A DNA stretch of 57,510 nt from a virus. Shown piece after piece: positions 6,449 through 57,510 of this stretch. A program made the translations under genes and the position numbers. The DNA is taken from IMG/VR virus record IMGVR_UViG_3300035698_011381. The stretch is one strand, 5' to 3'. Within the stretch, counting starts at the first letter, position 1, and each line of letters begins with the position of its first letter. The notes under the pieces were generated by a model. That model did not search any database. It saw nothing but the letters and a program-made list of their open reading frames with translations, and was not told the origin of the DNA.

Positions 6449-6829
6449 ATGGAACCAGTTAGAAACCTGAATATAAGGTTCTCGTGCCCTGAAGACGTGG
6501 AAAACTTCTACACTTCGACGGGCATCTGTATCCCTAAATGCGTTAAGGGCACCGTGGCGGTGTTTGATCTTGGCGAGTTCACCGAGACCTCCAGAAAAGT
6601 AACAAAGCAAACAGGGCCTAGCCTCGTGGCGGAGTGGGAAGGGATGCCAGAATTCCACCAACCTAAGAGCATACCTTTCCTATGGATCATCCTGTCTGTA
6701 CCCCCTGAGTTTGATTCGGGTATTATGACGGAGTTGCTGGGCCAGAAGATCACAGACAGGACAAAAAGCGTGTGGCACCCGTACAAAGCACACCACAGAG
6801 TTGAGCGGAAGGTATGGATACATGAATAA
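6449..6829 (+). CDS. Hypothetical protein (W-x-GMPEF motif domain)
   Basis: ATG at 6449 just after the SLT stop. It contains EWEGMPEFHQP...SVWHPYK. From memory, a similar module precedes some phage DNA methylases; this is unverified. Confidence 0.4.
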   Translation: MEPVRNLNIRFSCPEDVENFYTSTGICIPKCVKGTVAVFDLGEFTETSRKVTKQTGPSLVAEWEGMPEFHQPKSIPFLWIILSVPPEFDSGIMTELLGQKITDRTKSVWHPYKAHHRVERKVWIHE

Positions 6830-7709
6830 CCCAAAACACCCTATTTATATTGTTTCCAAAGGCCGCTGGGATAGCAGGGTCACAAGCAGGGCTCTCGATA
6901 TAATGAACGTCCCTCATAAGCTGGTAGTAGAATCCGACGAGTACGCAGATTACGCAGAAGCCGTAGGGCCTGAGCGGGTGCTTGTCCTCCCAGAAAAATA
7001 CAAAGACGATTACGACACGTTCTGGGAAAGGGAGCCCGACAACAAGGTTGGTCCGGGGGCGGCGAGGAATTTCGTTTGGGATCACTCCACCGAACAGGGA
7101 CACTCACACCACTGGGTAATGGATGATAACCTAGAAGCCTTTTACAGGTTAAACCGTAACGTGAAGTACGAGAGCCGAACAGGGGCTATCTTCCGTGCGA
7201 TGGAAGATTTTGTAGAACGGTATTCTAACGTGGCAATCTCTGGGCCTAACTATGAAGCGTTTTGCAAGGCTGTAGACCCCGTACCTCCTCTGATTACTAA
7301 CACTAGAATTTACAGTTGTTTGCTGATCCGTAACGACATCCCTTACAGGTGGCGCGGGAGGTATAATGAGGACACGGACATTTGCTTACGAGCCCTCAAA
7401 GATGGGTGGTGTACTGTCCAATTCAATGCTTTCTTGCAGGGCAAAGTCACCACTCAACGAATGAAGGGAGGGAACACGGAGGAGTTCTACAGCGGAGAGG
7501 GGACAGTCCCTAAAAGTAAGATGCTGGAGGAGATGCACCCCGACGTGGCGAAGATGGTTCACAAGTTTAACCGCTGGCACCATCACGTAGATTACACGCC
7601 TTTCAAGGCGACTAAACTAACTAGAAAAGAGGGCGTTGTAGTCCCTTCAGGGGTAAATGAATACGGTATGAAATTAGTAATTGAAAAGGGTAGTAAGAAA
7701 TGTCGATAA
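6822..7709 (+). CDS. Putative GT-A-like glycosyltransferase
   Basis: ATG at 6822 overlaps the upstream stop. IYIVSKGRW is an N-terminal strand-loop, and the acidic motifs VMDDN and NEDTD resemble DxD-type nucleotide-sugar transferases. The assignment is tentative. Confidence 0.35.
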   Translation: MNNPKHPIYIVSKGRWDSRVTSRALDIMNVPHKLVVESDEYADYAEAVGPERVLVLPEKYKDDYDTFWEREPDNKVGPGAARNFVWDHSTEQGHSHHWVMDDNLEAFYRLNRNVKYESRTGAIFRAMEDFVERYSNVAISGPNYEAFCKAVDPVPPLITNTRIYSCLLIRNDIPYRWRGRYNEDTDICLRALKDGWCTVQFNAFLQGKVTTQRMKGGNTEEFYSGEGTVPKSKMLEEMHPDVAKMVHKFNRWHHHVDYTPFKATKLTRKEGVVVPSGVNEYGMKLVIEKGSKKCR

Positions 7710-10604: not shown

Positions 10605-10627
10605 AACCAGCAAAGGAGACTGAAAAA

Positions 10628-10819: not shown

Positions 10820-11202
10820 GGGGCTGACTGGTTTCGACTGGTTAGACAGAAAATAAAGTTCATGTCGTGGTTGGTCGGTGGGCCACGTAAAAAGCCGTCC
10901 AAAACATAAATGCTAAAACGAAAGTTCTAGGATTCATCGGCGGAGCTCCGGCTCTCGCAATCGCCGCTTAACTGAGGTGTGATGAACGGGTCGAAGAAGA
11001 TGCCAGAGGATCGACGACCTGAACTGCTAAGACTGGTGCCCGTAAGGGAGTCCGACCGTGGAGGGGCTAAAACCGACGGAAACCCGTTTTGCTGGTTTCG
11101 GATAAAACTAGTTGGTGGAGGTGGCACCAGTTGCCACCCTGAAAACATGTAAACCTTTATTGGAAGCTGATTAGGACGCGGGTTCGATTCCCGCCAGCTC
11201 CA
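10820..11202 (+). ncRNA. ssrA: tmRNA (transfer-messenger RNA), one-piece form; tag ORF 10912..10971
   Basis: The 5' end GGGGCTGACTGGTTTCGAC, the internal CGTAAAAAGCCG, and the 3' end GGACGCGGGTTCGATTCCCGCCAGCTCC closely parallel E. coli ssrA. The acceptor stem GGGGCTG/CAGCTCC has a G3:U pair. The T-arm is GCGGG-TTCGATT-CCCGC. The tag frame GCT AAA ACG...GCC GCT TAA gives AKTKVLGFIGGAPALAIAA. Confidence 0.9.
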
Positions 11203-11351
11203 AACCTTTTGGGGGTAGAAACAGGGGATGCGAGGGGCGGCACCGAGCAAGCTGTCCTGCCGCTTTGACAGAAGAAAAGGAAGATAAAAATGGATAAAAC
11301 AAACACCGTAAGGAACCTGTTAAAAATCCCCAAGCGTTTGGGGGTTACGAG

Positions 11352-11558: not shown

Positions 11559-11576
11559 CCAGAAGGAGACCCAGAA

Positions 11577-45638: not shown

Positions 45639-45828
45639 AGGTTCAAGGGGTCTCCCGTTTATTTTTCCGGTGCCACTGTTACACGTCGCCTCCCTTTTAG
45701 TAAAGGAAAAAGTTACCCACTACGCGTAGCGTCCCCGATATTTTTCGACTGTGAAGGGGGTCGTTCTATTTCCAGATAAGGGGGCATATTTAAAGTAGAC
45801 TGTTTTCGAGTGGTTCGTTTAAAAAATC

Positions 45829-45881
45829 CCCCCGTGAAATTTTGAGCCCGAGAAATTGCCCCCGTGAAATTTTGAGCCCGA
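45829..45881. repeat. Two 23-bp direct repeats cccccgtgaaattttgagcccga, spaced 30 bp start to start
   Basis: Read directly at 45829..45851 and 45859..45881. Confidence 0.9.
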
Positions 45882-45940
45882 ATAAAAATCGACCTTCGAG
45901 GTTTGCGGGGGGGAAGTGCACCCGCGCCCGGATGCTCCAC

Positions 45941-45980
45941 GTAGCCGCTATCTCTTACACGTAGCCGCTATCTCTTACAC
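45941..45980. repeat. 20-bp tandem repeat x2 (gtagccgctatctcttacac), followed by a GC-rich gcccgccccgcccgcccg tract
   Basis: Read directly. Confidence 0.9.
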
Positions 45981-46072
45981 GCCCGCCCCGCCCGCCCGAT
46001 TAAAACAGATTTGAAAACATAATATTGACACGTTACTCTTTATCTGTTACGCGTGCCCGCGTTCCTATAAGC

Positions 46073-46295
46073 GCGGGCCGGTATACGCGGGCCGGTATAG
46101 GATACAGGATACAGCGGGCCGGTATAGGATACAGGATACAGCGGGCCGGTATAGGATACAGGATACGCGGGCCGGTATACGCGGGCCGGTATACGCGGGC
46201 CGGTATAGGATACAGGATACAGCGGGCCGGTATACGCGGGCCGGTATAGGATACAGGATACAGCGGGCCGGTATAGGATACAGGATACGCGGGCC
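46073..46295. repeat. Iteron-like array: 10 full copies plus one partial copy of GCGGGCCGGTATA, separated by either C or GGATACAGGATAC(A)
   Basis: Core copies start at 46073, 46087, 46114, 46141, 46167, 46181, 46195, 46222, 46236 and 46263, with a partial copy at 46289. Confidence 0.95.
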
Positions 46296-46552
46296 CCGTG
46301 ATCGTACCTTTTACATTTTTAAAAACTAGGCCTGATTTGAAGATCACGAAAAAAGGCCGGGTTGCTCTTGTAAATTTAAAAAACACTACTTTTCGGGATA
46401 TAGGGGGGAAAATACGGTTTACGCTTGTATTTTTAAAAAAGGGCCCTTTTTTGAAGATCAATATAATGACCCCTTCACAATTCCAAATAACCACGTATTT
46501 TTAATTTTACACAATCTTAAAAGGTAACTAATATATATTTGAAAACTTTTAA

Positions 46553-46582
46553 TATATACCATATAACCCATAGTGGTATATA
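46553..46582. repeat. Inverted repeat tatatacca-N12-tggtatata in the AT-rich segment
   Basis: Perfect 9-bp arms. The related tatatataccata recurs near 46706. Confidence 0.8.
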
Positions 46583-46783
46583 TAAAACATATTTGAGTTA
46601 AATAGTTTTTCGCGCTCGATCGCCACAATTCCGGATACCCGGCACTTTTTAAATTTACAAGCCGATATTCCCTTTTATCTTTGTAAGTGTTTCATTTTAG
46701 CTTTTTATATATACCATAGGAATCAGCACTATCCGTCTATAGCGCTCTATTTTTAAAAAACAAAAGAAAATTGAAAAAGAGGG

Positions 46784-46811
46784 TTGACATATAGATGGGG
46801 CGTGCTAAATT
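46784..46811 (+). promoter_or_regulatory. Sigma70-like promoter candidate for the early block
   Basis: TTGACA, a 16-nt spacer containing TGc, then TAAATT (an extended -10-like element), about 50 nt upstream of the first RBS-supported early ATG. Confidence 0.45.
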
Positions 46812-46862
46812 GACATTATGAAAACAGCCCAAAACAGAAACCAACCAAAAGGAGTCAAGATT

Positions 46863-47296: not shown

Positions 47297-47342
47297 AAAC
47301 CCGCCCACGCAAGGGGCAAAGTAAACGCATAAAGGGGAAAAG

Positions 47343-47435
47343 ATGAAACGTGAATCTGAACTCATAAACGAGCTAATAGTAATAATCGTATCGGCTGTAA
47401 TCGTAGCACTAATCATTGCTGTAAAAACAGCGTAA
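47343..47435 (+). CDS. 30-aa hydrophobic peptide
   Basis: AAAGGGGAAAAG leader. MKRESELINELIVIIVSAVIVALIIAVKTA. Confidence 0.4.
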   Translation: MKRESELINELIVIIVSAVIVALIIAVKTA

Positions 47436-47452
47436 AGAATAAAGGGGAAAAA

Positions 47453-47626
47453 ATGAAAGCACCTACAGAAGCACTTAATAAGAAAATAAACGAGCTTGCA
47501 ACTCTATGTAATAACATTAGCACCTACCTTTCCGGGTGCCATAGCGAAAACGAACAAACAGCCGCACTTATAAAGAGTATAGTCACTAGGCTTTGGGATG
47601 AATTAGACACTATCCCAGAAAAGTAA
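47453..47626 (+). CDS. Early hypothetical protein (57 aa)
   Basis: AAAGGGGAAAAA leader. MKAPTEALNKKINELATLCNN... Confidence 0.45.
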   Translation: MKAPTEALNKKINELATLCNNISTYLSGCHSENEQTAALIKSIVTRLWDELDTIPEK

Positions 47627-47649
47627 TTAAACGAAAAAAAGGGGAAAAG

Positions 47650-47802
47650 ATGACACTTGAAAAACAGATTATGAGAGAAGAATTAACCATGTTGAAAGAA
47701 GAACTAAAAGAAGCGGTTGCGCTATACCGCCGCGAGCCTAACGACTGGAATGGAGAGTCCGTTTCCGATTTACGCGAGGAAATCGCAAAGCTAGCACGCT
47801 AA
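47650..47802 (+). CDS. Early coiled-coil protein (50 aa)
   Basis: AAAGGGGAAAAG leader. MTLEKQIMREELTMLKEELKEAV... Confidence 0.45.
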   Translation: MTLEKQIMREELTMLKEELKEAVALYRREPNDWNGESVSDLREEIAKLAR

Positions 47803-47850
47803 CCGGTTCGCCCCACGCAAGGGGCAAAGTAAACGAAAAAAGGGGAAAAG

Positions 47851-48027
47851 ATGACACTTGAAAAACAGATTAGAAACGCATACGAGAAAGCCTATGGGGT
47901 CAAAACAGTTGACTATGAAGGCGAAATTTCCAAAGAAAAAAATACAATCGCCGTCGAAATTTGCGAAGATGGAACGGTTTTTGAACATGAGAAAGGTGGC
48001 GTTTCTTACGTTAAAATAATAATTTAA
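47851..48027 (+). CDS. Early hypothetical protein (58 aa)
   Basis: Same leader and the same first 7 codons (MTLEKQI) as 47650..47802. Confidence 0.45.
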   Translation: MTLEKQIRNAYEKAYGVKTVDYEGEISKEKNTIAVEICEDGTVFEHEKGGVSYVKIII

Positions 48028-48054
48028 AATGAGATTCAACTAAAAGGGGAAAAG

Positions 48055-48327
48055 ATGAAAGCCACGAAATTAAAGTACCTAACAGATAAAAACGGAAAAG
48101 AGCCTTTCTTTTCAGACTTGAAAGAAAAAGGGCGTATAGTAACAGAGCCACTTCATTGTCACACTGCCGGACTTATGCAAACTTCGACAGGATACGGTTC
48201 AAAACTAGCTACGCCCTACAAAATAAATGACTGTAACAGACTGAAAAGAATTTACGCCATTTGTTACAGCAACGCTTCCAGTTTATATATTTTCCGCAAA
48301 GACAAGCGCGTCTTTATCCATAGCTAA
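48055..48327 (+). CDS. Early hypothetical protein
   Basis: AAAGGGGAAAAG leader; MKATK start. Confidence 0.55.
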   Translation: MKATKLKYLTDKNGKEPFFSDLKEKGRIVTEPLHCHTAGLMQTSTGYGSKLATPYKINDCNRLKRIYAICYSNASSLYIFRKDKRVFIHS

Positions 48328-48357
48328 CAGCATAAAGAAAGAAGGGGAAAAGAAACC

Positions 48358-48606
48358 ATGAAAACGAAACTAGAAAAACAGGCCAAAGGGGAAAAGATGA
48401 CAAAGACAGAATCAAGAATATCAACAGGGAAAAATGATTATCTCTCTATCACCTTGCGGGGGAAGTTCGCGGCAGAATACAAATTCGACTTCATACTCTT
48501 GAAATGTTTTGTTTGCATTGGAGCAGATTTGTTTCCCTCAGCAATCCACGAATACACCGACAAGCAAGATATGTTTGCCGACATTGAAAAACTACGCAAC
48601 GCATAA
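48358..48606 (+). CDS. Early hypothetical protein
   Basis: GAAACC-ATG-AAA leader. An alternative start at 48396 also has a GGGGAAAAG leader. Confidence 0.5.
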   Translation: MKTKLEKQAKGEKMTKTESRISTGKNDYLSITLRGKFAAEYKFDFILLKCFVCIGADLFPSAIHEYTDKQDMFADIEKLRNA

Positions 48607-48616
48607 AGGGGAAAAG

Positions 48617-48793
48617 ATGAAAGCCACGAAAACGCGCTACAAGAAAATTGATCTATACGTTTACAATCCTGTTACAAAACAATTTGCATACTACGCATCC
48701 ACTACATGGCACGGGACACGCAAGAGCGCAAAAAGGATGCTAGTTGATAAACTAATGATTAAGCCGGAACACGTCAAAGCATCAGTGGCATAA
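48617..48793 (+). CDS. Early hypothetical protein (58 aa)
   Basis: AAAGGGGAAAAG leader; the MKATK start is identical to that at 48055. Confidence 0.5.
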   Translation: MKATKTRYKKIDLYVYNPVTKQFAYYASTTWHGTRKSAKRMLVDKLMIKPEHVKASVA

Positions 48794-48814
48794 ACCCGAA
48801 AAGGAAAAGAAACC

Positions 48815-48925
48815 ATGAAACCGAAAAAAAGAAACACGCCCGGCACGTACAAAACCCCTTCGATCTTCACCCTCTTAAAAGAGTATTTTAAAGAGTACCG
48901 CGCCCGGCACGCCCGAAACATTTAA
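48815..48925 (+). CDS. Possible 36-aa basic peptide
   Basis: AGGAAAAGAAACC-ATG leader; it terminates at the TAA inside the first 27-bp repeat unit. Confidence 0.3.
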   Translation: MKPKKRNTPGTYKTPSIFTLLKEYFKEYRARHARNI

Positions 48926-48976
48926 AACAGACTGAAACCCCGAAACATTTAAAACAGACTGAAACCCCGAAACCCC
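48915..48976. repeat. 27-bp tandem repeat x2.3 (gaaacatttaaaacagactgaaacccc)
   Basis: Units at 48915..48941 and 48942..48968, then a partial gaaacccc. Confidence 0.9.
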
Positions 48977-48994
48977 ATAGAAGGAAAAGAAACC

Positions 48995-49864
48995 ATGAAA
49001 ACGAAAAAAAGCAAAATAGAACAAGCTACAGTAGAAACATACTTGCCGATATTTCCCGGATTTTACGGTACACTATACGGCGCGGAGGATTCCGACGACG
49101 AAGAGCAGGCGATAAACGGCCTGTTAGAGCCCGCGGGATTTGCGCCCTCTCAAATAAACCCACTCTCAAAGGCTGTTTTCGACTTTGGAAGCGGCGCTGT
49201 AGAATTCGACTATTCCACATACTACCGCGATTATCTGGAAGAAATATCGGAAACCGTAGCGGCGGAATTGGAAGGTGTGCCGGGTTTCGTTTCTATGGAA
49301 CTACAAGGAATGAGGAGCCCGAAAGAATACAATTTTGCAAATGATTCCGGCGACGTTATTTTAAACCTATCAAATGAAAGGGCCTTTCGGGCGTGGATTT
49401 TAAAACAGTGCCGAATTGATCGTGCCGGGTTTGCGGAATACATACGGAAAAAATACACGTCTCGAAGCGGTTTTATGTCTTTTTATTCCAGTGACTCGAA
49501 AGACTGGATAAATGACATACGGGCCGGGCTCGACGAATTAGACGGGCACAAACTAGGCAGACTGTTAGACTATTATTTTTCCGAAATATCGGAGTTTGAC
49601 GACTGGGCACTTTACGAAACAGCAGAAAAGCCTTACTTGTCGGAATACATGAGTGGGCCGGTAGTCGATATTTTTGAGAAGGAAATGGGAAACCTACCGG
49701 AAAAGGTTTCCGGTATACTCGAAAGCATAAACGCGGGCCGGGAACAATTGAAAGCGTACGCGGAAAAGATGCCTTGTAACGCGGCAGCCCGCCAAGAGAC
49801 CGGGCTAATCAAAAACGAAACGAAACTTTATAAGGCGGCAGTCGAAACACTTATAGAAGCGTAA
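48995..49864 (+). CDS. Early hypothetical protein (289 aa)
   Basis: Cassette leader. It starts MKTKKSK...YLPIFPGFYGTLY and is acidic. Confidence 0.6.
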   Translation: MKTKKSKIEQATVETYLPIFPGFYGTLYGAEDSDDEEQAINGLLEPAGFAPSQINPLSKAVFDFGSGAVEFDYSTYYRDYLEEISETVAAELEGVPGFVSMELQGMRSPKEYNFANDSGDVILNLSNERAFRAWILKQCRIDRAGFAEYIRKKYTSRSGFMSFYSSDSKDWINDIRAGLDELDGHKLGRLLDYYFSEISEFDDWALYETAEKPYLSEYMSGPVVDIFEKEMGNLPEKVSGILESINAGREQLKAYAEKMPCNAAARQETGLIKNETKLYKAAVETLIEA

Positions 49865-49899
49865 AACAGACTCCAAACCCCGAAAAGGAAAAAGAAACC

Positions 49900-50244
49900 A
49901 TGAAAGCAACATTTAAGAAAATCGGAACAGACTACTTGCCCGCCATTAAGCACAAAAGCGGCAGACTTGAAACCCTTCACGGAGACGCGCTAGCTACTAC
50001 CGCAACGGCTACGAAGTACGCTCAGTTTGAAATAAACGAGCGTAGCCGGCGGCACGCTAAAGCAACCCCGGCACCCGTGGAAACGGCCCCGGCCCCGGCT
50101 TGGATAACTCCAAACCAATTCGCGGCACTATGCGACGAATACCTTATTCTTCCAGCCTTGGCACTCGAAAACGAGACTGTAAAAGGTGCCGTGCATCAAA
50201 AAGATTTAGACGCTTTGAAAGAAGCACTTGCAACTGAATTCTAA
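49900..50244 (+). CDS. Early hypothetical protein
   Basis: Cassette leader aacagactccaaaccccgaaaaggaaaaagaaacc-ATG; MKAT start. Confidence 0.55.
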   Translation: MKATFKKIGTDYLPAIKHKSGRLETLHGDALATTATATKYAQFEINERSRRHAKATPAPVETAPAPAWITPNQFAALCDEYLILPALALENETVKGAVHQKDLDALKEALATEF

Positions 50245-50277
50245 ACAGACTCCAAACCCCGAAAAGGAAAAGAAACC

Positions 50278-50526
50278 ATGAAAGCAACATGCCTAAATAT
50301 CACACGAGACCGCAACGGAAACAAAACCGTTTCTTTCAAGTCATGCACCGGAAAGCGCGGTTTTTCTATCCAGACTAGCGGCAACACGCCCGGCCTTAAC
50401 AGACTGCCAACCGGGGAAACTATCGCGGCACATTCCCGCGTCGAATTGTGGAAAGAATTTCTGGAATATGTCCGGGACTTTGGCACCGCCCGGCAGAAAA
50501 GTTTTTTCGAACTGACCGACATTTAA
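50278..50526 (+). CDS. Early hypothetical protein
   Basis: Same cassette leader; MKAT start. Confidence 0.55.
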   Translation: MKATCLNITRDRNGNKTVSFKSCTGKRGFSIQTSGNTPGLNRLPTGETIAAHSRVELWKEFLEYVRDFGTARQKSFFELTDI

Positions 50527-50576
50527 AAACACAAACCAATACGCGCCGGGCGTATCCCGGCAGAAAAGGAAACCAC

Positions 50577-50903
50577 ATGAGCCGCTCAATAAGCTACATA
50601 GTAACGTTTAACAATAACAAAACGAAAATGATAGCGGGACTGTTTAACCCGCACGGGGCGGAACACTTCACATCCCATTTTAACGGGGCGGAACAGACCG
50701 CCTTTGTAAAAAAGATCACAACTTTTGAGACTGGAAACTTGAAAAGCATAAAATCCCGCCGGTTAGGGTTCAATGCTTCATGCTGTGACTCTAAAAAACC
50801 GCATTTAGGCGGTATTGAACTTTTGGAATATAAATTTCCCGCGTTCCGTGGGACATTAGACAAAGTGTTTCAGGCTGTAAACGAGTTTCGGGGCAACTCA
50901 TGA
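50577..50903 (+). CDS. Early hypothetical protein
   Basis: The internal ATG of track ORF 50448..50903 is preceded by a GC hairpin and AAAAGGAAACC. Confidence 0.5.
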   Translation: MSRSISYIVTFNNNKTKMIAGLFNPHGAEHFTSHFNGAEQTAFVKKITTFETGNLKSIKSRRLGFNASCCDSKKPHLGGIELLEYKFPAFRGTLDKVFQAVNEFRGNS

Positions 50904-51100
50904 CTCTCTTACAGGCAACGGCCCGCGCCCGCGCCCTTGCGCCGTCTAACGGGTACGCGCTAGCAATACATATAGCCGCAAACGAAAGCGGCTACAGCAC
51001 GGGGAAAATAAGCGCGGAACTTCGTAAAGGCCGCAAGCGTAAAAAGTACGATTGCAAACCCGCGCCGGGCGTGCAGCAGTGGAAACCGTACGCGGATTAG
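50900..51100 (+). CDS. Early hypothetical protein
   Basis: ATGA coupling to the upstream stop. Confidence 0.5.
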   Translation: MTLLQATARARALAPSNGYALAIHIAANESGYSTGKISAELRKGRKRKKYDCKPAPGVQQWKPYAD

Positions 51101-51165
51101 ACTGAAACCCCGAAACATTTAAAACAGACTGAAACCCCGAAACATTTAAAACAGACTGAAACCCC
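51099..51165. repeat. 27-bp tandem repeat x2.5 (same unit as 48915..48976)
   Basis: A partial unit at 51099..51111, then full units at 51112..51138 and 51139..51165. Confidence 0.9.
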
Positions 51166-51182
51166 GAAAAGGAAAAGAAACC

Positions 51183-51356
51183 ATGAAACCGAAGCCACTT
51201 ACAAGCCGGGACTATAACGTAGCGTTTAAGATCTATATGGAAACCCTCAAAAAATTGAAACACAAAGACACGAGAGAAAACCGCGCGGCATTCGGCAAGG
51301 CATCCCGCGAATGTTCACGAGTTGCGGCCGTGTGCTTTGCGCCTATACCCTTTTAA
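51183..51356 (+). CDS. Early hypothetical protein (57 aa)
   Basis: Cassette leader. MKPKPLTSRDYNVAFKIYMETLKK... Confidence 0.45.
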   Translation: MKPKPLTSRDYNVAFKIYMETLKKLKHKDTRENRAAFGKASRECSRVAAVCFAPIPF

Positions 51357-51442
51357 AACAGACTAAAACCCCGAAACATTTAAAACAGACTGAACCCCCG
51401 AAACCCCGAAACATTTAAAACAGACTGAACCCCCGAAACCCC
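51351..51442. repeat. 35-bp tandem repeat x2 plus a partial unit (27-bp variant gaaacatttaaaacagactgaaccccc plus gaaacccc)
   Basis: Units at 51373..51407 and 51408..51442, preceded by a partial copy at 51351..51372. Confidence 0.9.
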
Positions 51443-51458
51443 GAAAGGAAACGAAACC

Positions 51459-54143
51459 ATGAAAACGAATACACCTATCAGCACACCCGCCGAAACACTC
51501 GACCTATCAGAAACCACGTACCCCGGCCAGCGTACCCGCCCCGCCGAAGATGTAGAAAATACCGAGATTCTTAAATGGGCAAGCGAAGCCGGGCCGCGAC
51601 AGACTGCCGACGTAAAAAAAGCCTTCGGTAAGGTACTCGGGGCCGGAAGCGGCACGCGGGTCCTGTCCTCGTGGCCCGACGGCTCAGAACATGAGAGCGT
51701 ACAGTATATCATGGGATGCCCGACCGACGAGGAACAGACACACAAAAACAAACAGACTGACGCGCTCAATGTTTTACACGCGGCGCACGGCGGGAAAATC
51801 ACGCGGGAAAATTGCCGCGCCCTCATAGCCGCCGCGCTAGAACTAATCCCAACCCTTAGAGACTGCCAACCGGTACGCGACGAGCGCAAGAGCATAGAGC
51901 AACACGCGACGGAAGCCGAAGAGCGGAAAGCCGCGCAGGAAAAGAGGGAAGAAAAACAGGCAGAAGAAAAAGCGAAAAAATGGGCGGAAGAGGAGACCGC
52001 CGCGCTTGATTACCCCTACCTTTCCCGCGTAGGGGGGAGCGGGGGCGGAAAAGATGCCGCTAAAAATATAAGACTGACCTTGAAAAAGGAGTTTCCCGGT
52101 ATTCGTTTCTCGGTAACTTCTGACTATTCTAGAGTTCAAATAAACTGGAACGACGGCCCGACCGCCGACCAAGTCGAAGCCTTCACAAATAACTTTAAAG
52201 AAGGACACTTTGACGGGATGACAGACAGTTACAACTACAACTCGACCGCGTTTAACGACGCTTTTGGGGGATGTCGATACATTTTCACGAGCCGAAACAC
52301 GCGGGAGCTTCTGCAGACTGTAAAAGCCGCACTTCCAGAAATGGGCAACCTCGACGACTGGGAAACGGAACAACATAAAAACCGGAAAGCGCGGGAGCTG
52401 ATTAGTAAAACAGACTTGACCGGAAAAGGTGCCTTTCTCGCAGTGATCGACCCCGAAGAGGGGACGGGGTGCCACGTTGTAGAGCTCGCGCTAAAGTTTG
52501 AAGAGACCACGGCACCCGCGACCGACGCCGCCCGTCAAACGCCCGCCACGGGGCCGGTGACTATCGAAGAGCACACACACACGAAAAAAGGCTTTCAGAT
52601 GTGGCTTGTGAGACTATCCGACCGCGTAGAGCGCGACGAGTTCCAAGCACTCAAAAGCACCGCGCAGGGGCTGGGGGGTTGGTACTCTCGCAAGTGGGGC
52701 ACGACCCCCGCAGGCTTCGCGTTTAAGACTCCCGAAGCCGCGCAGACTTTCGCGGACGGCATCGCGGGCACCGACCCCGAGCCGACGGGCACCGACGCGC
52801 CGCCGACAGACTCCAAAGCCGAAGCAATCCCAGCACCTTACAACGTCCAGAGTGCCGACTACACGCCCGAGGAGAAAGAAGTCAAAGCGAGAACCGTGGG
52901 ACAACTGCCGCACCCTCTACGCCTTCCGGCCCTCGCGGACATCGGGCGGGCTATCGGAACGGAAAAGGAAATAAAGTTCGGCTGGTGGCTGTCTATGAGT
53001 CTCGACCTCACACGGGGCGAAGAGGACGGGCACCCGCTCAAAGAGTACATGAGGACGACCGGCGACAATCTGCCGCTCTCGCTTCTCAACTGGAAGCCGG
53101 AGCCGGAGCCGGAGCCGGAACCCTACGGCACCGACCCGCACGAAACAACAGACTGCGACACGCCCCGCCCAAACTCAGCCGCTAACAGTGCCGAGAAGCT
53201 CCGCGCCATGGCCGACCGCCTGACTTCCCAGATCGAAGATAAAACCCGCGACATGACCCAGATCCCGACGCCCAAGCGCAATTTAGAATATAAGGCGCGG
53301 ATGATCGAAGGGCACCACCTCGAACGGGTACAGACTGCCGCGCGGGTTCTGGCCGACGGTCTCGAAGCGGGCACCCTCCCGCCTATCTTGCAGACCGTCC
53401 GAACGAAAAAGGACTTGCTCAAATACACGGAGACACGTTCCGACATGTCCGGGGGTTATTATTCCATTGTTGACACCGGCGAGTTTTCCGACACGTCACC
53501 GGCGGCGGTAGCGTTACTGACTCTCCTCAAAGAGGCCAGCGACCCCGAAGCGGAAGCGGCACGGAAAAAGGAGACTGAATTAAAGAATAAAATTCTGAAC
53601 CTCACGGGGCAGAAAATCCCCGGATTCTTCCCGACGCCGTGCGCCGTAGCGGAGAAAATGCTCGACGCCCTCGACATTCAAGAAGGGGAGACTGTTCTTG
53701 AGCCTTCCGCCGGTACCGGGAACCTAGCAGAACGAGCCCGAGACGCGGGAGGGGTCGTGACGTGTGTAGAAATACGCCCGAGCCTGTGCGAGATCCTAGA
53801 ACTAAAAGGGTTCATTACTTTCTGCGAAGATTTTACAAACCCCAACGGGGAAGATACTGGAATCTCTCGATTCGATAAAGCGATAATGAACCCGCCCTTT
53901 GAAAAGGGACAGGATGCCGACCACATCCGCGCCGCTTACCACTGCCTTAAAGACGGCGGACGGCTCGCGGCTATCGCTGGGGAAGGTATTTTCTTCCGCA
54001 CTGACTCGAAGGCTACCGCCTTCCGCGACTGGCTCGAAGAGGTAGGCGGCACGTCGGAACAACTCCCGGCGGGGTCGTTCCAAGGTACCGGCGAAGTATC
54101 CCAGACCGGTACAGATACGCGCCTCGTCATCATTACACGCTAA
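51459..54143 (+). CDS. Large polyvalent early protein with a C-terminal gamma-class N6-adenine DNA methyltransferase domain
   Basis: C-terminal motif I VLEPSAGTGNLA precedes motif IV IMNPPFEKG. The upstream modules include GIRFSVTSDYSRVQINWNDGPTADQVEAFTNNF and HTHTKKGFQMWLVRLSDRV...GGWYSRKWG, linked by EPEPEPEP. Confidence 0.75.
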   Translation: MKTNTPISTPAETLDLSETTYPGQRTRPAEDVENTEILKWASEAGPRQTADVKKAFGKVLGAGSGTRVLSSWPDGSEHESVQYIMGCPTDEEQTHKNKQTDALNVLHAAHGGKITRENCRALIAAALELIPTLRDCQPVRDERKSIEQHATEAEERKAAQEKREEKQAEEKAKKWAEEETAALDYPYLSRVGGSGGGKDAAKNIRLTLKKEFPGIRFSVTSDYSRVQINWNDGPTADQVEAFTNNFKEGHFDGMTDSYNYNSTAFNDAFGGCRYIFTSRNTRELLQTVKAALPEMGNLDDWETEQHKNRKARELISKTDLTGKGAFLAVIDPEEGTGCHVVELALKFEETTAPATDAARQTPATGPVTIEEHTHTKKGFQMWLVRLSDRVERDEFQALKSTAQGLGGWYSRKWGTTPAGFAFKTPEAAQTFADGIAGTDPEPTGTDAPPTDSKAEAIPAPYNVQSADYTPEEKEVKARTVGQLPHPLRLPALADIGRAIGTEKEIKFGWWLSMSLDLTRGEEDGHPLKEYMRTTGDNLPLSLLNWKPEPEPEPEPYGTDPHETTDCDTPRPNSAANSAEKLRAMADRLTSQIEDKTRDMTQIPTPKRNLEYKARMIEGHHLERVQTAARVLADGLEAGTLPPILQTVRTKKDLLKYTETRSDMSGGYYSIVDTGEFSDTSPAAVALLTLLKEASDPEAEAARKKETELKNKILNLTGQKIPGFFPTPCAVAEKMLDALDIQEGETVLEPSAGTGNLAERARDAGGVVTCVEIRPSLCEILELKGFITFCEDFTNPNGEDTGISRFDKAIMNPPFEKGQDADHIRAAYHCLKDGGRLAAIAGEGIFFRTDSKATAFRDWLEEVGGTSEQLPAGSFQGTGEVSQTGTDTRLVIITR

Positions 54144-54185
54144 CCCACTACCGCGCCGGGCGGACTCCCGGCAGAAAGCGGAACC

Positions 54186-54299
54186 ATGAAAGAAAAACTA
54201 ATTATGTTACTGCAAGTTGTAGCGGGCACGATAATCATAGCCGCGCTCGCGGGCTCTGTCGGCCCGATATATGACGCGGTGCAGGCGTTCATTAAATAA
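54186..54299 (+). CDS. 37-aa hydrophobic peptide
   Basis: GC hairpin plus a GGAACC-ATG-AAA leader. MKEKLIMLLQVVAGTIIIAALAGSVGPIYDAVQAFIK. Confidence 0.4.
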   Translation: MKEKLIMLLQVVAGTIIIAALAGSVGPIYDAVQAFIK

Positions 54300-54314
54300 A
54301 AGGAGACTGAAAAT

Positions 54315-54491
54315 ATGAACGTAAATTTAAAAGGGTTAGCGGCTGACGCGTGGTTCAACGAGATACCGCTTGACGATCCGTACGCCCCGTGCCCGTGCGG
54401 ATGCGGTAAGAAATGGAAGTTCATAAAGGCTGACTACGAAGAACACGAGGCCCGATTTATCAAGGCTTTTATCTTAAACGAAACCAAATAA
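54315..54491 (+). CDS. Small protein with a SEC-C-like metal-binding motif (58 aa)
   Basis: AAGGAGAC RBS; CPCGCGKKWKF. Confidence 0.5.
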   Translation: MNVNLKGLAADAWFNEIPLDDPYAPCPCGCGKKWKFIKADYEEHEARFIKAFILNETK

Positions 54492-54506
54492 AAGGAGACT
54501 GAAACC

Positions 54507-54665
54507 ATGGAAAAACCACCCGGAGTAATCATCGCACCCGTCCCCAAGGGGCACGCCCGAAGGAGACTGACCAGCTTTATAAGGCAGGCCGCGCTCCTCG
54601 GGCTACTCTTCGCCGTGGCGGGCACATTCGCCGCCGTCGCACTCAAAACGTTAATCAGTAAATAA
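54507..54665 (+). CDS. 52-aa membrane peptide
   Basis: AAGGAGAC RBS; LLGLLFAVAGTFAAVAL TM segment. Confidence 0.45.
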   Translation: MEKPPGVIIAPVPKGHARRRLTSFIRQAALLGLLFAVAGTFAAVALKTLISK

Positions 54666-54678
54666 GGAGACTGGAAAC

Positions 54679-55233
54679 ATGGAAAAAGTAACATTCAAAG
54701 AAGTACAAATCGGAGAAACCTACAGACTGCGTGCGGACGGCTGTTCCTACAAAAAGAACGGCCCCAACACGGGACTAATCCAAGGCAAGGCACGAGAAGA
54801 GGAGTACGGCGTCCGTCAATCGAAAGAGGTGTGCGTAAAGACACCAAGCGTCATCCACCTAAAGAAAACGAACTTCAGGCTTGTTTCCAACGGGGAAAAG
54901 TTCTGGACTCCGTTCGGCAATCACTTCAGACGATACACCAAGGGATCGCCCGACGAAGCACGCAACGACGCTACAGGCACGATCACACGTTTTGATGCCC
55001 ATAGAACAGTGCACGTTAGTCAGCTTCCTACAAAGGTCGTCGAGCTCCCCGCCCCGAAAAAGGTAAAGGAAAAGCCCGTCGTGACTGTGGCCTTTGAAGG
55101 CTTCCAGTTCCGGGAGGGCAAGGTAGGCGGCGAGACTATCGAAAACATCGAGACGTTGATTAAGACGCTCCAGAAAAAACGCCGACTGTACAAGCGGTTC
55201 GCCCTCCTGCACGGATGGATGCCCTACAAGTAA
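54679..55233 (+). CDS. Hypothetical protein
   Basis: AAGGAGAC RBS; 184 aa. Confidence 0.6.
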   Translation: MEKVTFKEVQIGETYRLRADGCSYKKNGPNTGLIQGKAREEEYGVRQSKEVCVKTPSVIHLKKTNFRLVSNGEKFWTPFGNHFRRYTKGSPDEARNDATGTITRFDAHRTVHVSQLPTKVVELPAPKKVKEKPVVTVAFEGFQFREGKVGGETIENIETLIKTLQKKRRLYKRFALLHGWMPYK

Positions 55234-55292
55234 ACGAATCAGAGGGAGAGGGGCGATCCCCTCCCTCGTAACCCTCCAAGGAGACACTGACC

Positions 55293-55445
55293 ATGAAAAA
55301 CTACCGACCCAACGACGACGAGCCCGCCCCGCACTTCGAGAAGATCAAAAGCCACAAGCACCAGCACGGGAAACACGAACGCCTGAACAAGGACACACGC
55401 GCCCGCAGACTCGAACGCATCCGAATTAAAGAGGACATACAATAA
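55293..55445 (+). CDS. 50-aa highly basic/His-rich peptide
   Basis: AAGGAGAC RBS. MKNYRPNDDEPAPHFEKIKSHKHQHGKHERLNK... Confidence 0.4.
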   Translation: MKNYRPNDDEPAPHFEKIKSHKHQHGKHERLNKDTRARRLERIRIKEDIQ

Positions 55446-55504
55446 GACCTTGACGTACAGAAAAATGTAAAGTAAAAGGGATAGGAAATTAGAGGAGACT
55501 GAAA

Positions 55505-55828
55505 ATGAAAAAGAAAACGTATTACGCGAACAACGGGGCCGTCGCGGAGGTAGAAACAACTGAAACAACGGAGACTGAAAAAGGGGAACCGATTAGCCAG
55601 AAAGTTTACGACGCCCTGCATGCCTTTTACAGGGTGGGCAACGCAGACCCTCGATACCTCTACCTCGGGTACTTAGAAGCCGAACAGTTAAGGGCGCACG
55701 TGGCGTTCGTACTACAGGAAGACGCCGCCTTCCTGAGCGGGGGGAAGTACGAGGGCATGGAAGTGATGTGCGTGAGCACCATCAGCCACTTGTCTATCGG
55801 CGGGGTAAAAGAGAAGGAGACTGCCTAA
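55505..55828 (+). CDS. Hypothetical protein
   Basis: GAGGAGAC RBS; 107 aa. Confidence 0.55.
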   Translation: MKKKTYYANNGAVAEVETTETTETEKGEPISQKVYDALHAFYRVGNADPRYLYLGYLEAEQLRAHVAFVLQEDAAFLSGGKYEGMEVMCVSTISHLSIGGVKEKETA

Positions 55829-56523
55829 TGAACAAGAAAAAAATACATGAATTATCGGAACGGCTGAAGGAGTTGAAGGAGAGCCACGCGTACTTAGAAT
55901 TTATGGCACCGTCTAAAGACATGTGCGTCGCCCTCTCTGCCCTTGAGAATAACATCATCACCACCACGAAGGAGCTGTATAAGGCTCAGGATGTGGACTA
56001 CTTCCCTACCGCTATCGAGGACGGCGGGGTCGTTATGTACTTATTGTTCCGTAAAGGGGGCTTAGAGCCCGTCGTCGCGCGACTCGACCCATCCGTCGCG
56101 GCAACCATCAAAGAGGCCAAAATCACGCTATTCGCGTCCTCTTCAGGGCGTTCGTGGTTCCTCGCCGCTAAGGAGACGGATGGAACGGTGTTCCGCGTAG
56201 CCCGTACGGTGAAAGGGATAACCGACCCCGACAAGATCGTACTTCCCAAAAACGAGGACGTGTTCGATTGCCGCCTTAAAAATCTCGAAGAAACCACACG
56301 CTCGGATGCGACTCGTAAGAGGGTAGACGAAAACGGCGATAGAGAGAACGGCATCCAGAAAGTCGGGGAGAAGTACCGCGTAAACGTGTACGTCCCCGAC
56401 CGGGGCTGTGCGGTGTACGGGGGGCTACACGGAGACATCAAGGACGCTCGGGAAGCTCGGGACGGTATTTTAGACAAGGAGAGAGCAGACCACCGACCAA
56501 AGAACAAAGGGAGAAACCAATGA
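55828..56523 (+). CDS. Putative DNA-binding protein with a C-terminal AP2-like domain
   Basis: TAATG coupling. GIQKVGEKYRVNVYVPDRGCAVYGGLHGDIKDAREARDGIL resembles the AP2 strand-strand-helix pattern. No HNH motif was seen. Confidence 0.4.
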   Translation: MNKKKIHELSERLKELKESHAYLEFMAPSKDMCVALSALENNIITTTKELYKAQDVDYFPTAIEDGGVVMYLLFRKGGLEPVVARLDPSVAATIKEAKITLFASSSGRSWFLAAKETDGTVFRVARTVKGITDPDKIVLPKNEDVFDCRLKNLEETTRSDATRKRVDENGDRENGIQKVGEKYRVNVYVPDRGCAVYGGLHGDIKDAREARDGILDKERADHRPKNKGRNQ

Positions 56524-56994: not shown

Positions 56995-57510
56995 ATGAAA
57001 CTTATGCAAGGCGATTGCCTAGAACGAATGAAAGAAATTGAGAGTGGATCAGTTGACATGGTGCTAACCGACCCGCCCTACGGAACCACGGCCTGCAAAT
57101 GGGATTCTGTTATCCCGCTTGAGGCGATGTGGGAGCAGCTTAAGCGCGTTATCAAGCCGAACGGTGCTATAGTGATGACTGCGAGCCAGCCTTTTACGAC
57201 GACGCTAATCGCATCCAACATGAAGATGTTTAAGTATTGTTGGGTGTGGGAAAAAAGCAAGGGTTGCAACTTTACTCACGCCAAGAATATGCCTATTAAA
57301 TTCACAGAGGATGTCTGCGTGTTCTCGCCTGCGCCCATAGGGCATAAAGTTCAATTAAAAGAACGCAGAATGTCGTACAATCCGCAGGGGCTTGTTCGTG
57401 TCGATAAGAAATGGAGCAGACCAAGGAAATACGAGAACGGGCATAAACTCAAGCGAGATTCCCATAAGCTAGAACGAACCATTGAGTTTGAGAACTACCC
57501 CAGAAATCTA
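56995..57510 (+). CDS. DNA methyltransferase (beta-class N6A/N4C type), 5' part; continues at 2..418 across the circular junction
   Basis: GGAGG RBS 7 nt upstream of the ATG. Translation MKLMQGDCLERMKEIESGSVDMVLTDPPYG carries the DPPY catalytic motif. The frame is open to the window end and in phase with ORF 164..418. Confidence 0.85.
   Translation, partial: MKLMQGDCLERMKEIESGSVDMVLTDPPYGTTACKWDSVIPLEAMWEQLKRVIKPNGAIVMTASQPFTTTLIASNMKMFKYCWVWEKSKGCNFTHAKNMPIKFTEDVCVFSPAPIGHKVQLKERRMSYNPQGLVRVDKKWSRPRKYENGHKLKRDSHKLERTIEFENYPRNL
57384..57510. repeat. Second copy of the 127-bp terminal overlap
   Basis: Identical to 1..127. Confidence 0.95.

Follow-up and report, generated by a model that had tools for sequence, protein, structure and literature searches.

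Recurrent start leaders and a polar heptamer in the putative early region of an uncultured phage

Introduction

The presumed early region of an uncultured 57-kb phage, which consists of many small ORFs on the + strand, raises the question of why so many unrelated genes begin with nearly the same sequence. In the window (the whole stretch of 57,510 nucleotides analyzed here), 21 of 24 consecutive early ORFs are headed by one of three leader families, each of which is present in 7-8 copies compared with an expectation of 0.00-0.06. A first-pass annotation had treated these leaders as a conserved junction between genes, used either for cassette-style gene shuffling or for uniform post-transcriptional control. 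Such a framing misses the main point, which is that the AGACTG core of the junctions is also selected within coding sequence.

Organization of the Early Region and Its Leaders

A cluster of sigma-70-like promoter matches on the + strand (46474-46811), found by consensus scan only, is located at the head of the early operon; the best match is TTGACA-16-TAAATT at 46784-46811. A long polycistronic early transcript is presumed to start from this cluster, and the term "early" is itself a putative assignment based on gene order and promoter-like matches only. Neither an RNA polymerase or sigma gene nor a repressor or integrase gene was detected. No sigma-70 promoter-like match was found at any leader or 27-nt unit, and the only sense-strand hairpin with a T-run terminator between 46.9 and 56.4 kb lies within a methyltransferase gene. 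Small GC hairpins occur at only four or five junctions, and junction hairpins have T-runs only as read on the - strand.

The type 1 leaders (AAAGGGGAAAAG-ATG, n = 7) occupy 47331-48619 on the + strand, in a segment of ~41% GC that is almost devoid of the heptamer described below. Searching with AAAGGGGAAAAGATG and up to 1 mismatch retrieved copies at 47331, 47441, 47638, 47839, 48043, 48385, and 48605, all on the + strand, compared with 0.05 expected from shuffles. The copy at 48385 sits in frame within ORF 48358-48606 and thus represents a second start nested in that ORF, not an ORF of its own. At 47300-47345 (+) a small GC hairpin accompanies a type 1 leader, and this combination is repeated at 47812-47862 with 92% identity over 51 nt.

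The type 2 leaders (AAGGAAAAGAAACC-ATG-AAA, n = 7) follow at 48344-51464 on the + strand, with copies at 48344, 48801, 48981, 49886, 50264, 51169, and 51445 (search pattern AAGGAAAAGAAACCATGAAA, up to 2 mismatches; 0.00 expected). Their upstream part, AACAGACTGAAACCCCGAAA, has 8 copies versus 0.00 expected, and at three junctions, all on the + strand, it forms tandem arrays with units of 27 or 35 nt. The array at 48912-48976, upstream of ORF 48995, contains 2.3 copies of the 27-nt unit CCCGAAACATTTAAAACAGACTGAAAC and starts within the end of ORF 48815-48925, taking in its last codons and its stop. Similarly, the array at 51096-51169, upstream of ORF 51183, contains 2.6 copies of the 27-nt unit and begins with the TAG stop of ORF 50900-51100 (TAGACTG). 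The third array (51352-51446), upstream of the methyltransferase gene, combines 27/35-nt units with three core copies and is polymorphic, with one 35-nt unit fewer in a contig from another sample (L160). Direct repeats also characterize RNA decoy arrays, such as pseudo-ToxI or RNA anti-CRISPRs, whose transcripts resemble a host antitoxin RNA or a CRISPR repeat; a search of Rfam, including the CRISPR-DR families, gave no match to the tandem units. In addition, TAAAACAGACTCCAAACCCCGAAAAGGAAAAAGAAACC, a lone copy of the junction unit whose core is the variant AGACTC, was found at 49862-49899 (+) and in a near-identical copy at 50241-50277.

The type 3 leaders, (stop)-AAGGAGACTGAAA-N-ATG, are distributed over 54300-55830 on the + strand (54300, 54492, 54664, 55492, and 55814). 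With AAGGAGACTGAAA and up to 1 mismatch, 8 copies were detected in total (0.06 expected), of which four precede starts within the flagged span (54300, 54492, 54664, and 55492), one lies at 10613, and three are inside ORFs (13452, 53568, and 55568). The copy at 55814 has two mismatches and heads a start at 55828, just past the flagged end, and a variant reading AAGGAGACACTGACC occurs at 55278. In type 3 leaders the heptamer overlaps the Shine-Dalgarno (SD) sequence. Two further forms were observed on the + strand: a hairpin-type leader, GCCGGG-loop-CCCGGC followed by AGAAAAGGAAACCAC-ATG (50544-50579, second copy at 54153-54188), and a decayed composite leader, GGAGACTGAAAAAGGGGAACCGATT, at 55566-55593 within ORF 55505-55828. 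All three families proposed by the first-pass annotation were recovered at the positions it gave, and three of its assignments had to be revised: the leader at 54176, given as type 2, is the hairpin-containing variant; the one at 54495, also given as type 2, is type 3; and 11563, given as type 3, reads AAGGAGACCC and has the SD only. The annotation also did not mention the tandem form of the type 2 upstream part, the sharing of leader types by adjacent genes, the scatter of the AGACTG core within ORFs, or the similar design in relatives.

Every leader type places an SD (AAGGGG, AAGGA, or AAGGAG) 5-9 nt upstream of ATG, with a spacer that is A-rich, T-poor, and unstructured. AAA directly follows ATG in 14 of 21 early starts versus 2 of 38 elsewhere, and the folding energy of the -30..+30 region averages -3.7 kcal/mol in early genes compared with about -7.0 in other genes (p = 6e-4). 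As originally proposed, the unit takes in the stop codon of the preceding ORF, and the conservation goes beyond a shared SD: it covers 15-20 nt in the tested patterns (up to ~50 nt in aligned repeat pairs) and extends over the first 4-7 codons of unrelated ORFs, with products starting MKA(T/P) (5 ORFs), MKT (3), or MKP (2). An identical 37-nt block including 7 codons heads two unrelated ORFs. Leader types are common to neighboring genes, and no protein homology was found within the genome among leader-sharing ORFs; because these ORFs are not paralogues, the leader behaves as a module.

A Polar Heptamer Selected within Genes

The heptamer (C/G)(A/G)GACTG defines a block at 48237-55823 in which 28 copies lie on the + strand, versus about 1.8 expected (~15x chance), and one on the - strand, corresponding to one copy per roughly 280 nt. 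Sites are present both at junctions, where they lie 0-4 nt past the upstream stop codon, and within ORFs. In type 2 junctions, as well as in the equivalent junctions of the relative L001, the heptamer is found 29-45 nt upstream of ATG. Sequence information is limited to these 7 nt, with no second conserved element at a fixed distance; neither a preference for unpaired RNA nor a promoter, terminator, or structural signature was detected at the heptamer.

Mid-block, at 51459-54143 (+), lies the gene for a polyvalent protein of 894 aa. The protein combines an LPD29 domain with a methyltransferase domain of the N6-adenine type (NPPF motif) at its C-terminus, and DNA adenine methyltransferases are its nearest relatives of solved structure. 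The gene contains 11 GACTG copies, and its heptamers occur in all three frames. When compared with synonymous-codon shuffles, the core shows an in-ORF excess of z = 5.9-7.8 in all five phages. Moreover, the Thr codon ACT is used in 53% of cases in the context G_ACN_G versus 20% elsewhere (p = 2.5e-14). The heptamer is thus maintained within ORFs via codon choice. The enrichment is limited to the block around the methyltransferase gene and is absent in the replication and late regions, where the sense strand of the genes shows a weak deficit (12 observed versus 19.9 expected) that is not significant.

Conservation of the Word among Relatives

The LPD29-methyltransferase is the only early gene common to all relatives, and its protein is only ~50% identical between this phage and four word-bearing relatives. 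In the window, L002, and L007, no 6-mer is more enriched than AGACTG (or its CAGACT register), for which the +:- counts are 31:1, 34:1, and 23:0, respectively. The corresponding count in L005 is 27:3, with CAGACT ranked first, and in L001 the second-ranked word is GGACTG (20:2). The heptamer exists in two dialects among these relatives; the expected 6-mer counts across the window and relatives are 2.8-4.6. The density of the word is conserved while its positions turn over, and the relatives have local leader families of their own in the same style. A fifth relative, L144, shows no heptamer enrichment; small early ORFs are few ahead of its methyltransferase gene, and its contig ends ~2.5 kb past this gene. 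No such word was found in other phages with homologous LPD29-methyltransferases.

The early gene set itself turns over quickly. Only ~8 of 27 early ORFs have a homologue in the four relatives, no relative closer than ~60% protein identity was found, and no immediate-early ORF is conserved across relatives, which would leave a host factor, the LPD29 protein, or some rapidly evolving protein as the reader of the word. Of 20 early ORFs compared with Pfam, 9 of which were also compared with PHROGs, none was recognized as encoding a nuclease or RNA-binding protein.

Possible Functions

Our tentatively preferred explanation, which we hold to be possible but still short of probable, comprises two layers: recombining translation-initiation cassettes and a sense-strand heptamer signal that is probably read on RNA. 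In the first layer, each small early ORF would carry a compact initiation cassette (previous stop, spacer, SD, ATG, AAA). As the early ORFs probably share one long transcript made by the host RNA polymerase, the cassette may allow efficient ribosome capture by each of them. Recombination, gene conversion, or slippage between copies might keep the cassettes near-identical among neighbors, and, as a side effect, the cassettes could become joints for gain, loss, fusion, and splitting of unrelated ORFs. In the second layer, the separate heptamer would set apart 5-9 kb around the methyltransferase gene as a discrete "delayed-early" block. It would most probably be recognized on mRNA by a single sequence-specific factor, a nuclease or RNA-binding regulator encoded by phage or host, leading to joint processing, silencing, or protection of the entire block, much as T4 RegB/S1 acts on GGAG with an A-rich tail. 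The anatomy, the statistics, the conservation, the codon-level selection, and the array polymorphism are observations, whereas optimized translation, homogenization by recombination, reading on RNA, and a trans-acting factor are inferred. The earlier suggestion of a single RNA-binding factor or RNase fits the anatomy best and has its precedent in RegB/S1, although no such factor was identified. Being co-linear with transcription, the word does not distinguish among RNA, non-template DNA, and a one-way DNA process as its substrate. A broader proposal, which appears doubtful at present, is that the heptamer represents a new class of phage architecture signal, i.e., a dense polar word kept by codon choice through which one factor times, protects, or destroys a block, with leaders and arrays as its most concentrated form.

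Several other explanations were considered. The stop-heptamer-leader unit could primarily be a crossover site that shuffles small early genes in the manner of PeSL or attC, as in the first-pass view of a mobile junction. Indirect support comes from the observations that leaders and first codons are common to unrelated ORFs, neighbors have the same leader type, one leader is nested and one has decayed within an ORF, and the array polymorphism involves a single unit. The ORFan-rich, fast-turnover gene set points in the same direction, as does L144, in which a scarcity of small early ORFs ahead of the methyltransferase gene goes together with the lack of heptamer excess. However, neither a recombinase or integrase in the early region nor attC-like structures or inverted-repeat sites were found, the population contigs available showed no gene-level indel, with leaders at its ends or otherwise, and codon-selected crossover sites would be unexpected within a conserved gene, where recombination would be harmful; a primary role as recombination joint is thus considered unlikely. 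An oriented DNA-level site is rather unlikely as well, if slightly less so. It might be a Chi-like attenuator of RecBCD/AddAB on the first-entering DNA, a stoperator-like roadblock to early transcription, or a landing or target site of the LPD29-methyltransferase. The strict polarity and the conservation of density over position would suit such a site, the block is centered on the only universally conserved early gene, a relative of DNA adenine methyltransferases, and both oriented Chi words and oriented asymmetric stoperators (PMC9283540) are established principles. On the other hand, 7 bp is short for a specific binder of duplex DNA, and the word is missing from L144 and other phages with homologous methyltransferases. 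In addition, the block begins 1.5-2 kb downstream of the promoters, which would leave these unprotected from an end-entering nuclease.

Even less probable is a minimal promoter or -10-like element for a phage-modified or alternative-sigma RNA polymerase, in which case a middle-class block would have many starts in one orientation and the tandem arrays would be stacked promoters. T4 late promoters use TATAAATA as a short recognition element, and the word examined here is likewise short, oriented, and enriched at junctions, with the above spacing of 29-45 nt from ATG. Furthermore, the second base of (C/G)AGACT is A and the sixth is T, as at the most conserved positions of a -10 hexamer, and several L007 copies read CAGACTATAAATA. 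However, the L001 version, GGGACTG, lacks the A; the units have neither sigma-70 consensus matches nor a second element at a fixed distance; the phage has no detected polymerase or sigma gene; and the spacing of one copy per roughly 280 nt within ORFs is far denser than in any known promoter class. Finally, a generic purine-rich ribosome-binding site combined with compositional bias or recent duplications, i.e., no special signal, would agree with the very A-rich, T-poor sense strand and with GGAGAC being the usual SD context genome-wide. The outcome that would have reduced the leaders to such a site did not materialize: observed counts were never reached in dinucleotide-preserving or synonymous-codon shuffles, leader-sharing ORFs are not paralogues, and four phages with methyltransferases only ~50% identical to this one show enrichment of the same word in the same orientation. 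Contradicted by the 6-mer ranking in relatives, the shuffles, the ACT codon bias, and the heptamer count, a generic site as sole explanation was rejected as highly improbable.

Three properties of this locus make the question of function testable: the minimal 7-nt core can be synonymously recoded, the evidence points to selection on the nucleic acid itself within genes, and four word-bearing relatives and one without the word form a natural comparison set. If one factor reads the heptamer, the system would show how a phage coordinates or shuts off its host-takeover gene set and would provide a portable tag for block-wide expression control. The leaders are predicted to be compact, strong, and unstructured initiation modules, and might serve as parts for polycistronic expression.

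Comparison with Known Systems

Integrons differ from this locus in that their attC imperfect palindromes and IntI integrase were not found here. More similar are the PeSLs of T4-type phages, each consisting of a sigma-70 promoter and a terminator hairpin, for which shuffling and mini-circles have been shown (PMC2839356, PMC4122927). Both are short conserved cassettes between small ORFans in hyperplastic early regions, whereas the units described here have neither sigma-70 promoter nor terminator stem-loop, and PeSL genes are shuffled by recombination between copies while only a unit-level indel was seen here. The stoperators of Cluster A mycobacteriophages are 13-bp, genome-wide sites of an identified immunity repressor in temperate phages (PMC9283540, PMC6550527). 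They resemble the heptamer in having many asymmetric copies in one orientation to transcription, often in short gaps at stop codons; in contrast, the heptamer has 7 informative positions and is confined to one block of a phage that showed neither a repressor nor an integrase. Chi and other polar oligomers are words of 5-8 nt in host chromosomes, occurring about once per several kb. The heptamer shares with them a short oriented form, density over exact position, and presence within genes, but is much denser (one per roughly 280 nt), restricted to a single phage block, and not G-rich.

At the RNA level, T4 RegB/S1 recognizes an 11-nt target, GGA plus an A-rich tail, common to early SD regions (PMC1702504). 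Together with RegA, it illustrates how one phage factor can read a single-stranded SD element of ~11 nt and inactivate early messages together (PMC1702504, PMC3014915). In such targets, located in the SD of early genes, GGA(G) is joined to an A-rich tail of 7 nt from which C is excluded. All three leader types open with GGA and an A-rich tail, which in types 1 and 2 may fit this pattern, whereas the tail of type 3 has C and U. Unlike the RegB target, the heptamer includes a C, and most of its copies are remote from the SD, those within ORFs among them; moreover, neither a regB/regA homologue nor, among the scanned early ORFs, a nuclease family match was found.

A close likeness is to the SAS of Cluster K mycobacteriophages, an asymmetric element of ~13 bp with an SD core, present in 11-19 copies in one orientation (PMC3203893). 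SAS are located 3-7 bp before ATG, only in the non-structural half of the genome and in front of genes of different families; the upstream stop codon is sometimes included, and their function has been open since 2011 (PMC3203893). Similarly, the leaders are 13-20 nt long and are followed by ATG at a distance of 0-5 nt, with every pattern copy on the + strand. None of the three leader types matches the SAS consensus, GGGATAGGAGCCC, suggesting elements of one kind that belong to different families. The 17-bp imperfect inverted repeats (ESAS) that accompany about half of the SAS sites upstream were not encountered here, the small GC hairpins at four or five junctions being different in form. Further differences are the presence of three leader families instead of one, the extension of conservation into codons, and the tandem 27/35-nt arrays. 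Start-associated sequences of early regions are thus already known; what is new here, and has not been reported for SAS, is the selection of the core word within ORFs.

Genome organization and the putative early region

The sequence is a complete phage genome that was assembled as a circle with a 127-nt terminal overlap, and it is identical to JGI contig Ga0075111_1000040 (sample 3300005911). Bases 1-127 are identical to 57384-57510, as expected of a genome of ~57,383 bp that is terminally redundant or was assembled as a circle. The phage is siphovirus-like (capsid protein E fold, ClpP-type protease, tape measure and tail proteins), with all of these on the minus strand from 45.6 to 16.4 kb. 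Plus-strand genes run from 46.86 kb over the window end to 16.4 kb and comprise first ~27 ORFs, most of them small, and then a replication module (DUF5906 primase-helicase, PD-(D/E)XK nuclease, SNF2 helicase and family A DNA polymerase). The two arms are set apart by 1.2 kb of non-coding DNA (45640-46860), which contains sigma-70-like promoter matches directed into the small-ORF region. As no phage-encoded RNA polymerase or sigma factor was found in the window, we infer the early nature of this region from its position and orientation.

Additional features were observed along the genome. A tandem array (46072-46295, plus strand) lies within the 1.2-kb non-coding interval from which the late and early arms diverge. 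Its period is 27 nt (GCGGGCCGGTATAGGATACAGGATACA, alongside shorter variants of 14 nt), and further short repeats adjoin it at 45829-45981; it is unrelated to the type 2 leader units and may be an origin, packaging or regulatory array. A full-length phage-encoded tmRNA (10820-11203, plus strand; Rfam RF00023, 130 bits; predicted tag peptide AKTKVLGFIGGAPALAIAA) lies within the replication module, immediately 5' of the DNA polymerase gene. It was uninformative as a guide to the host, its 5' 19-mer being common to Acidimicrobiia and Bacteroidota and only its tRNA-like ends aligning. An intein with a LAGLIDADG homing-endonuclease domain splits a 901-aa late ORF (38201-40906, minus strand), and a second methyltransferase gene (N6_N4_Mtase; 56995 to about 418) crosses the window end. 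The ORF at 6801-7709 (plus strand) matches phrog_842, a beta-glucosyl-HMC-alpha-glucosyltransferase (E = 2e-55), which hints at possible glycosylated hypermodified bases in the DNA of this phage.

Leader families as probable translation-initiation modules

The first-pass annotation had proposed that small early ORFs are preceded by a few nearly fixed leaders, and this was confirmed by copy numbers far over expectation: the type 1 pattern AAAGGGGAAAAGATG occurs 7 times (0.05 expected), type 2 AAGGAAAAGAAACCATGAAA 7 times (0.00 expected), the upstream part of type 2 AACAGACTGAAACCCCGAAA 8 times (0.00 expected), and type 3 AAGGAGACTGAAA 8 times (0.06 expected), on the plus strand in every case. 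If two hairpin variants and a variant of type 3 are included, such a leader precedes 21 of 24 consecutive ORFs in 47343-55828. The types are clustered: 47.3-48.6 kb holds type 1, 48.3-51.5 kb type 2 and 54.3-55.8 kb type 3. Products do begin with MKA, MKT or MKP, as had been noticed. Some of the individual positions needed revision: the leader at 48385 is present but serves an in-frame start nested within ORF 48358-48606, that at 54495 is a leader of type 3 rather than type 2, the copy at 55815 exists and precedes the start at 55828, just past the flagged end, and the supposed type 3 leader at 11563 is merely AAGGAGACC. Overall, the finding is real and stronger than first described.

All three types place a Shine-Dalgarno sequence 5-9 nt before the ATG. 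AAA is the second codon at 14 of 21 early starts compared with 2 of 38 elsewhere in the genome, the predicted folding energy from -30 to +30 averages -3.7 kcal/mol at early starts against about -7.0 elsewhere (p = 6e-4), and the sense strand has a very marked excess of A over T (AT skew 0.25-0.37). No terminator-like site was detected on the sense strand between 46.9 and 56.4 kb, bar one scan match within the LPD29-methyltransferase gene; neither sigma-70 promoters nor intrinsic terminators were found at the type 2 repeat units, and searches for known RNA families gave no match across the region. A strong, unstructured translation-initiation region within a long polycistronic message would have just these properties.

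The leaders are modules rather than remnants of gene duplication. All-against-all BLASTP of the early proteins returned zero intragenomic pairs; an identical 37-nt block, including seven codons (MTLEKQI), precedes the unrelated ORFs 47650 and 47851, a 51-nt block with a small hairpin is 92% identical between 47304 and 47812, and ~48 nt up to MKAT are common to ORFs 49900 and 50278. In addition, one ORF has two in-frame starts with a separate leader type at each, and a decayed composite leader lies inside ORF 55505. The likeliest account of the leaders is that they are optimised translation-initiation cassettes kept alike by recombination and that, as a by-product, they would provide joints where genes can be gained or lost, fused or split.

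GC-rich hairpins were seen at five junctions (47300-47320, 47808-47828, 50544-50562, 54153-54174 and 55242-55267); a plus-strand A-run precedes each stem, making them terminator-like only for antisense (leftward) transcription. Words related to these hairpins, CCCGGCAG and CTGCCGGG, are also enriched in two related phage contigs (L001 and L005). The junction before ORF 55505 contains a single exact copy of the 11-mer TGACGTACAGA (55451-55461, plus strand), overlapping a promoter-like TTGACG-17-TAAAAG site. This 11-mer corresponds to the "cold box" in the 5' UTR of E. coli cspA and was confirmed upstream of that gene in NC_000913.3; the match may be due to chance.

Tandem arrays and repeat-unit polymorphism

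At three junctions the upstream part of the type 2 leader forms a tandem repeat of 27- or 35-nt units (48912-48976, 51096-51169, and 51352-51446 before the methyltransferase gene). The upstream stop codon, previously suggested to belong to the cassette, indeed falls inside the unit and recurs in frame because the unit is 27 nt long. In L160, a contig from another sample, the array before the methyltransferase gene lacks exactly one of the 35-nt units and its flanks are 99.9% identical, which indicates that recombination or slippage between repeat copies is still ongoing. Another repeat-unit polymorphism within the phage group was noted between two related contigs (L005 and L006, 99.8% identical), whose sole difference is a 23-nt unit in the upstream non-coding region (L005 563-585).

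Distribution in related phages

Megablast against 50,697 deposited phage records revealed no similar phage, and the capsid shares no more than 25% identity with any entry. Neither this search, three viral-contig scans nor a metagenome scan provided close relatives useful for breakpoint mapping; 11 metagenome hits were rejected, each being a single chance match. Relatives were found through the 894-aa polyvalent LPD29-methyltransferase encoded at 51459-54143 (plus strand): four related contigs of the same architecture (L001, L002, L005 with L006, and L007) have orthologues that share 48-53% identity with the window's enzyme. A homologue among these four exists for only about 8 of the 27 early ORFs, which points to a fast-turnover ORFan region. 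Every relative has its own local leader families of similar style, for example AAGGAAAGAGAGACC-ATGAAA in L001 and TAAAGGAGTATATATC-ATGCA in L002, with adjacent genes likewise using one leader type. A fifth relative, L144 (methyltransferase 58% identical to that of the window), has few small early ORFs upstream of this gene.

A polar heptamer in the early region

AGACTG, the core shared by types 2 and 3, also occurs outside junctions, with 44 plus-strand and 6 minus-strand copies in the window, 31 of the former within 47.2-55.8 kb. The heptamer (C/G)(A/G)GACTG is found 28 times on the plus and once on the minus strand of 48237-55823, where whole-window shuffles imply ~1.8. When early-region k-mers were ranked without prior motif choice, the AGACTG/CAGACT register came first in the window (31:1, plus to minus), L002 (34:1) and L007 (23:0); in L005 CAGACT ranks top (43:3) with AGACTG at 27:3, and L001 uses a GGGACTG dialect (GGACTG second-ranked, 20:2). 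In each of the genomes compared, the enrichment forms a discrete block of 5-9 kb that starts 1.5-2 kb into the operon, has the methyltransferase gene at its centre and stops short of the primase gene. The window's replication and late regions have zero excess, and the deficit of the word on other sense strands (12 observed, 19.9 expected) is a trend only. The first ORF after the block (55828-56523, plus strand, 231 aa) has weak HNH endonuclease family matches (phrog_99, E = 2e-4), and an HNH_3 gene also lies downstream of the block in L005.

Selection for the word operates at the nucleic-acid level. In-ORF copies of the core exceed synonymous-codon shuffles in five genomes (z = 5.9-7.8; AGACTG alone up to 9.6), and ACT is the codon chosen for threonine in 53% of G_ACN_G contexts, compared with 20% in other contexts (odds ratio 4.5, p = 2.5e-14). 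A protein-level cause was rejected, given this excess and the use of three reading frames in the methyltransferase gene. Among orthologous methyltransferase genes some sites are positionally conserved and most are lineage-specific, with a density of 10-14 per gene. Junction copies lie 0-4 nt behind the upstream stop codon at a variable distance from the next ATG; stop triplets are not enriched upstream of in-ORF copies. Site spacing shows only a mild excess at 20-30 nt, for which the arrays are partly responsible, and the structural context equals that of control positions, unpaired RNA not being favoured.

A general tie to the LPD29-methyltransferase family was rejected, as other phage types with homologues lack the word and its enrichment; their oriented GATCTG-type words track the coding strand throughout and seem to be a product of codon usage. 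Enrichment is also absent from L144, whose contig stops about 2.5 kb beyond the methyltransferase gene.

Interpretation of the heptamer

The heptamer needs an explanation separate from the leaders. Pure composition or a generic ribosome-binding site is excluded by the oriented k-mer enrichment, the synonymous-shuffle excess, the ACT bias and the 28 copies against ~1.8. The initial claim that the similarity of the leaders goes beyond a shared Shine-Dalgarno sequence is supported. Since the word is polar relative to transcription, confined to a single operon segment, maintained in density and not in position, concentrated in junctions (taken as ribosome-free) and 7 nt long with no motif information outside these positions, it fits a single-strand recognition element best. 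Oriented DNA-level sites (Chi-like, stoperator-like, or sites of the polyvalent methyltransferase) are a somewhat doubtful alternative; in its favour, the nearest solved relatives of this enzyme are DNA adenine methyltransferases, and its gene lies in the middle of the block. It is also unlikely that the repeat units are crossover sites of a cassette system; no gene-sized differences were seen among the few population contigs, the 35-nt unit being the sole variation. Minimal promoters for a modified RNA polymerase seem quite improbable. As to a reader of the putative single-strand element, no candidate nuclease or RNA-binding protein was detected in the 20 early ORFs scanned against Pfam, 9 of them against PHROGs as well, and no immediate-early ORF is common to the relatives. 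To our knowledge, the heptamer has no described counterpart in phage early regions, and this component is directly testable.

Comparison with known systems

The leader component is a variant of a known, unexplained kind of element. As translation-initiation cassettes that would act as joints, the leaders belong with the start-associated sequences found in Cluster K mycobacteriophages, a kind of element without an assigned function (PMC3203893). They also resemble the PeSLs of T4 in evolutionary role but, unlike these, have no promoter or terminator (PMC2839356). In T4, early Shine-Dalgarno regions contain a common 11-nt element, GGA(G) with an A-rich tail, that is targeted by the RegB nuclease, which is activated by ribosomal protein S1 (PMC1702504). 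All three leader types here likewise begin with GGA; the tail is A-rich in types 1 and 2 and includes C and U in type 3. On the T4 precedent, we favour a putative RNA-level reader of the heptamer, which would process, silence or protect the block as a unit.
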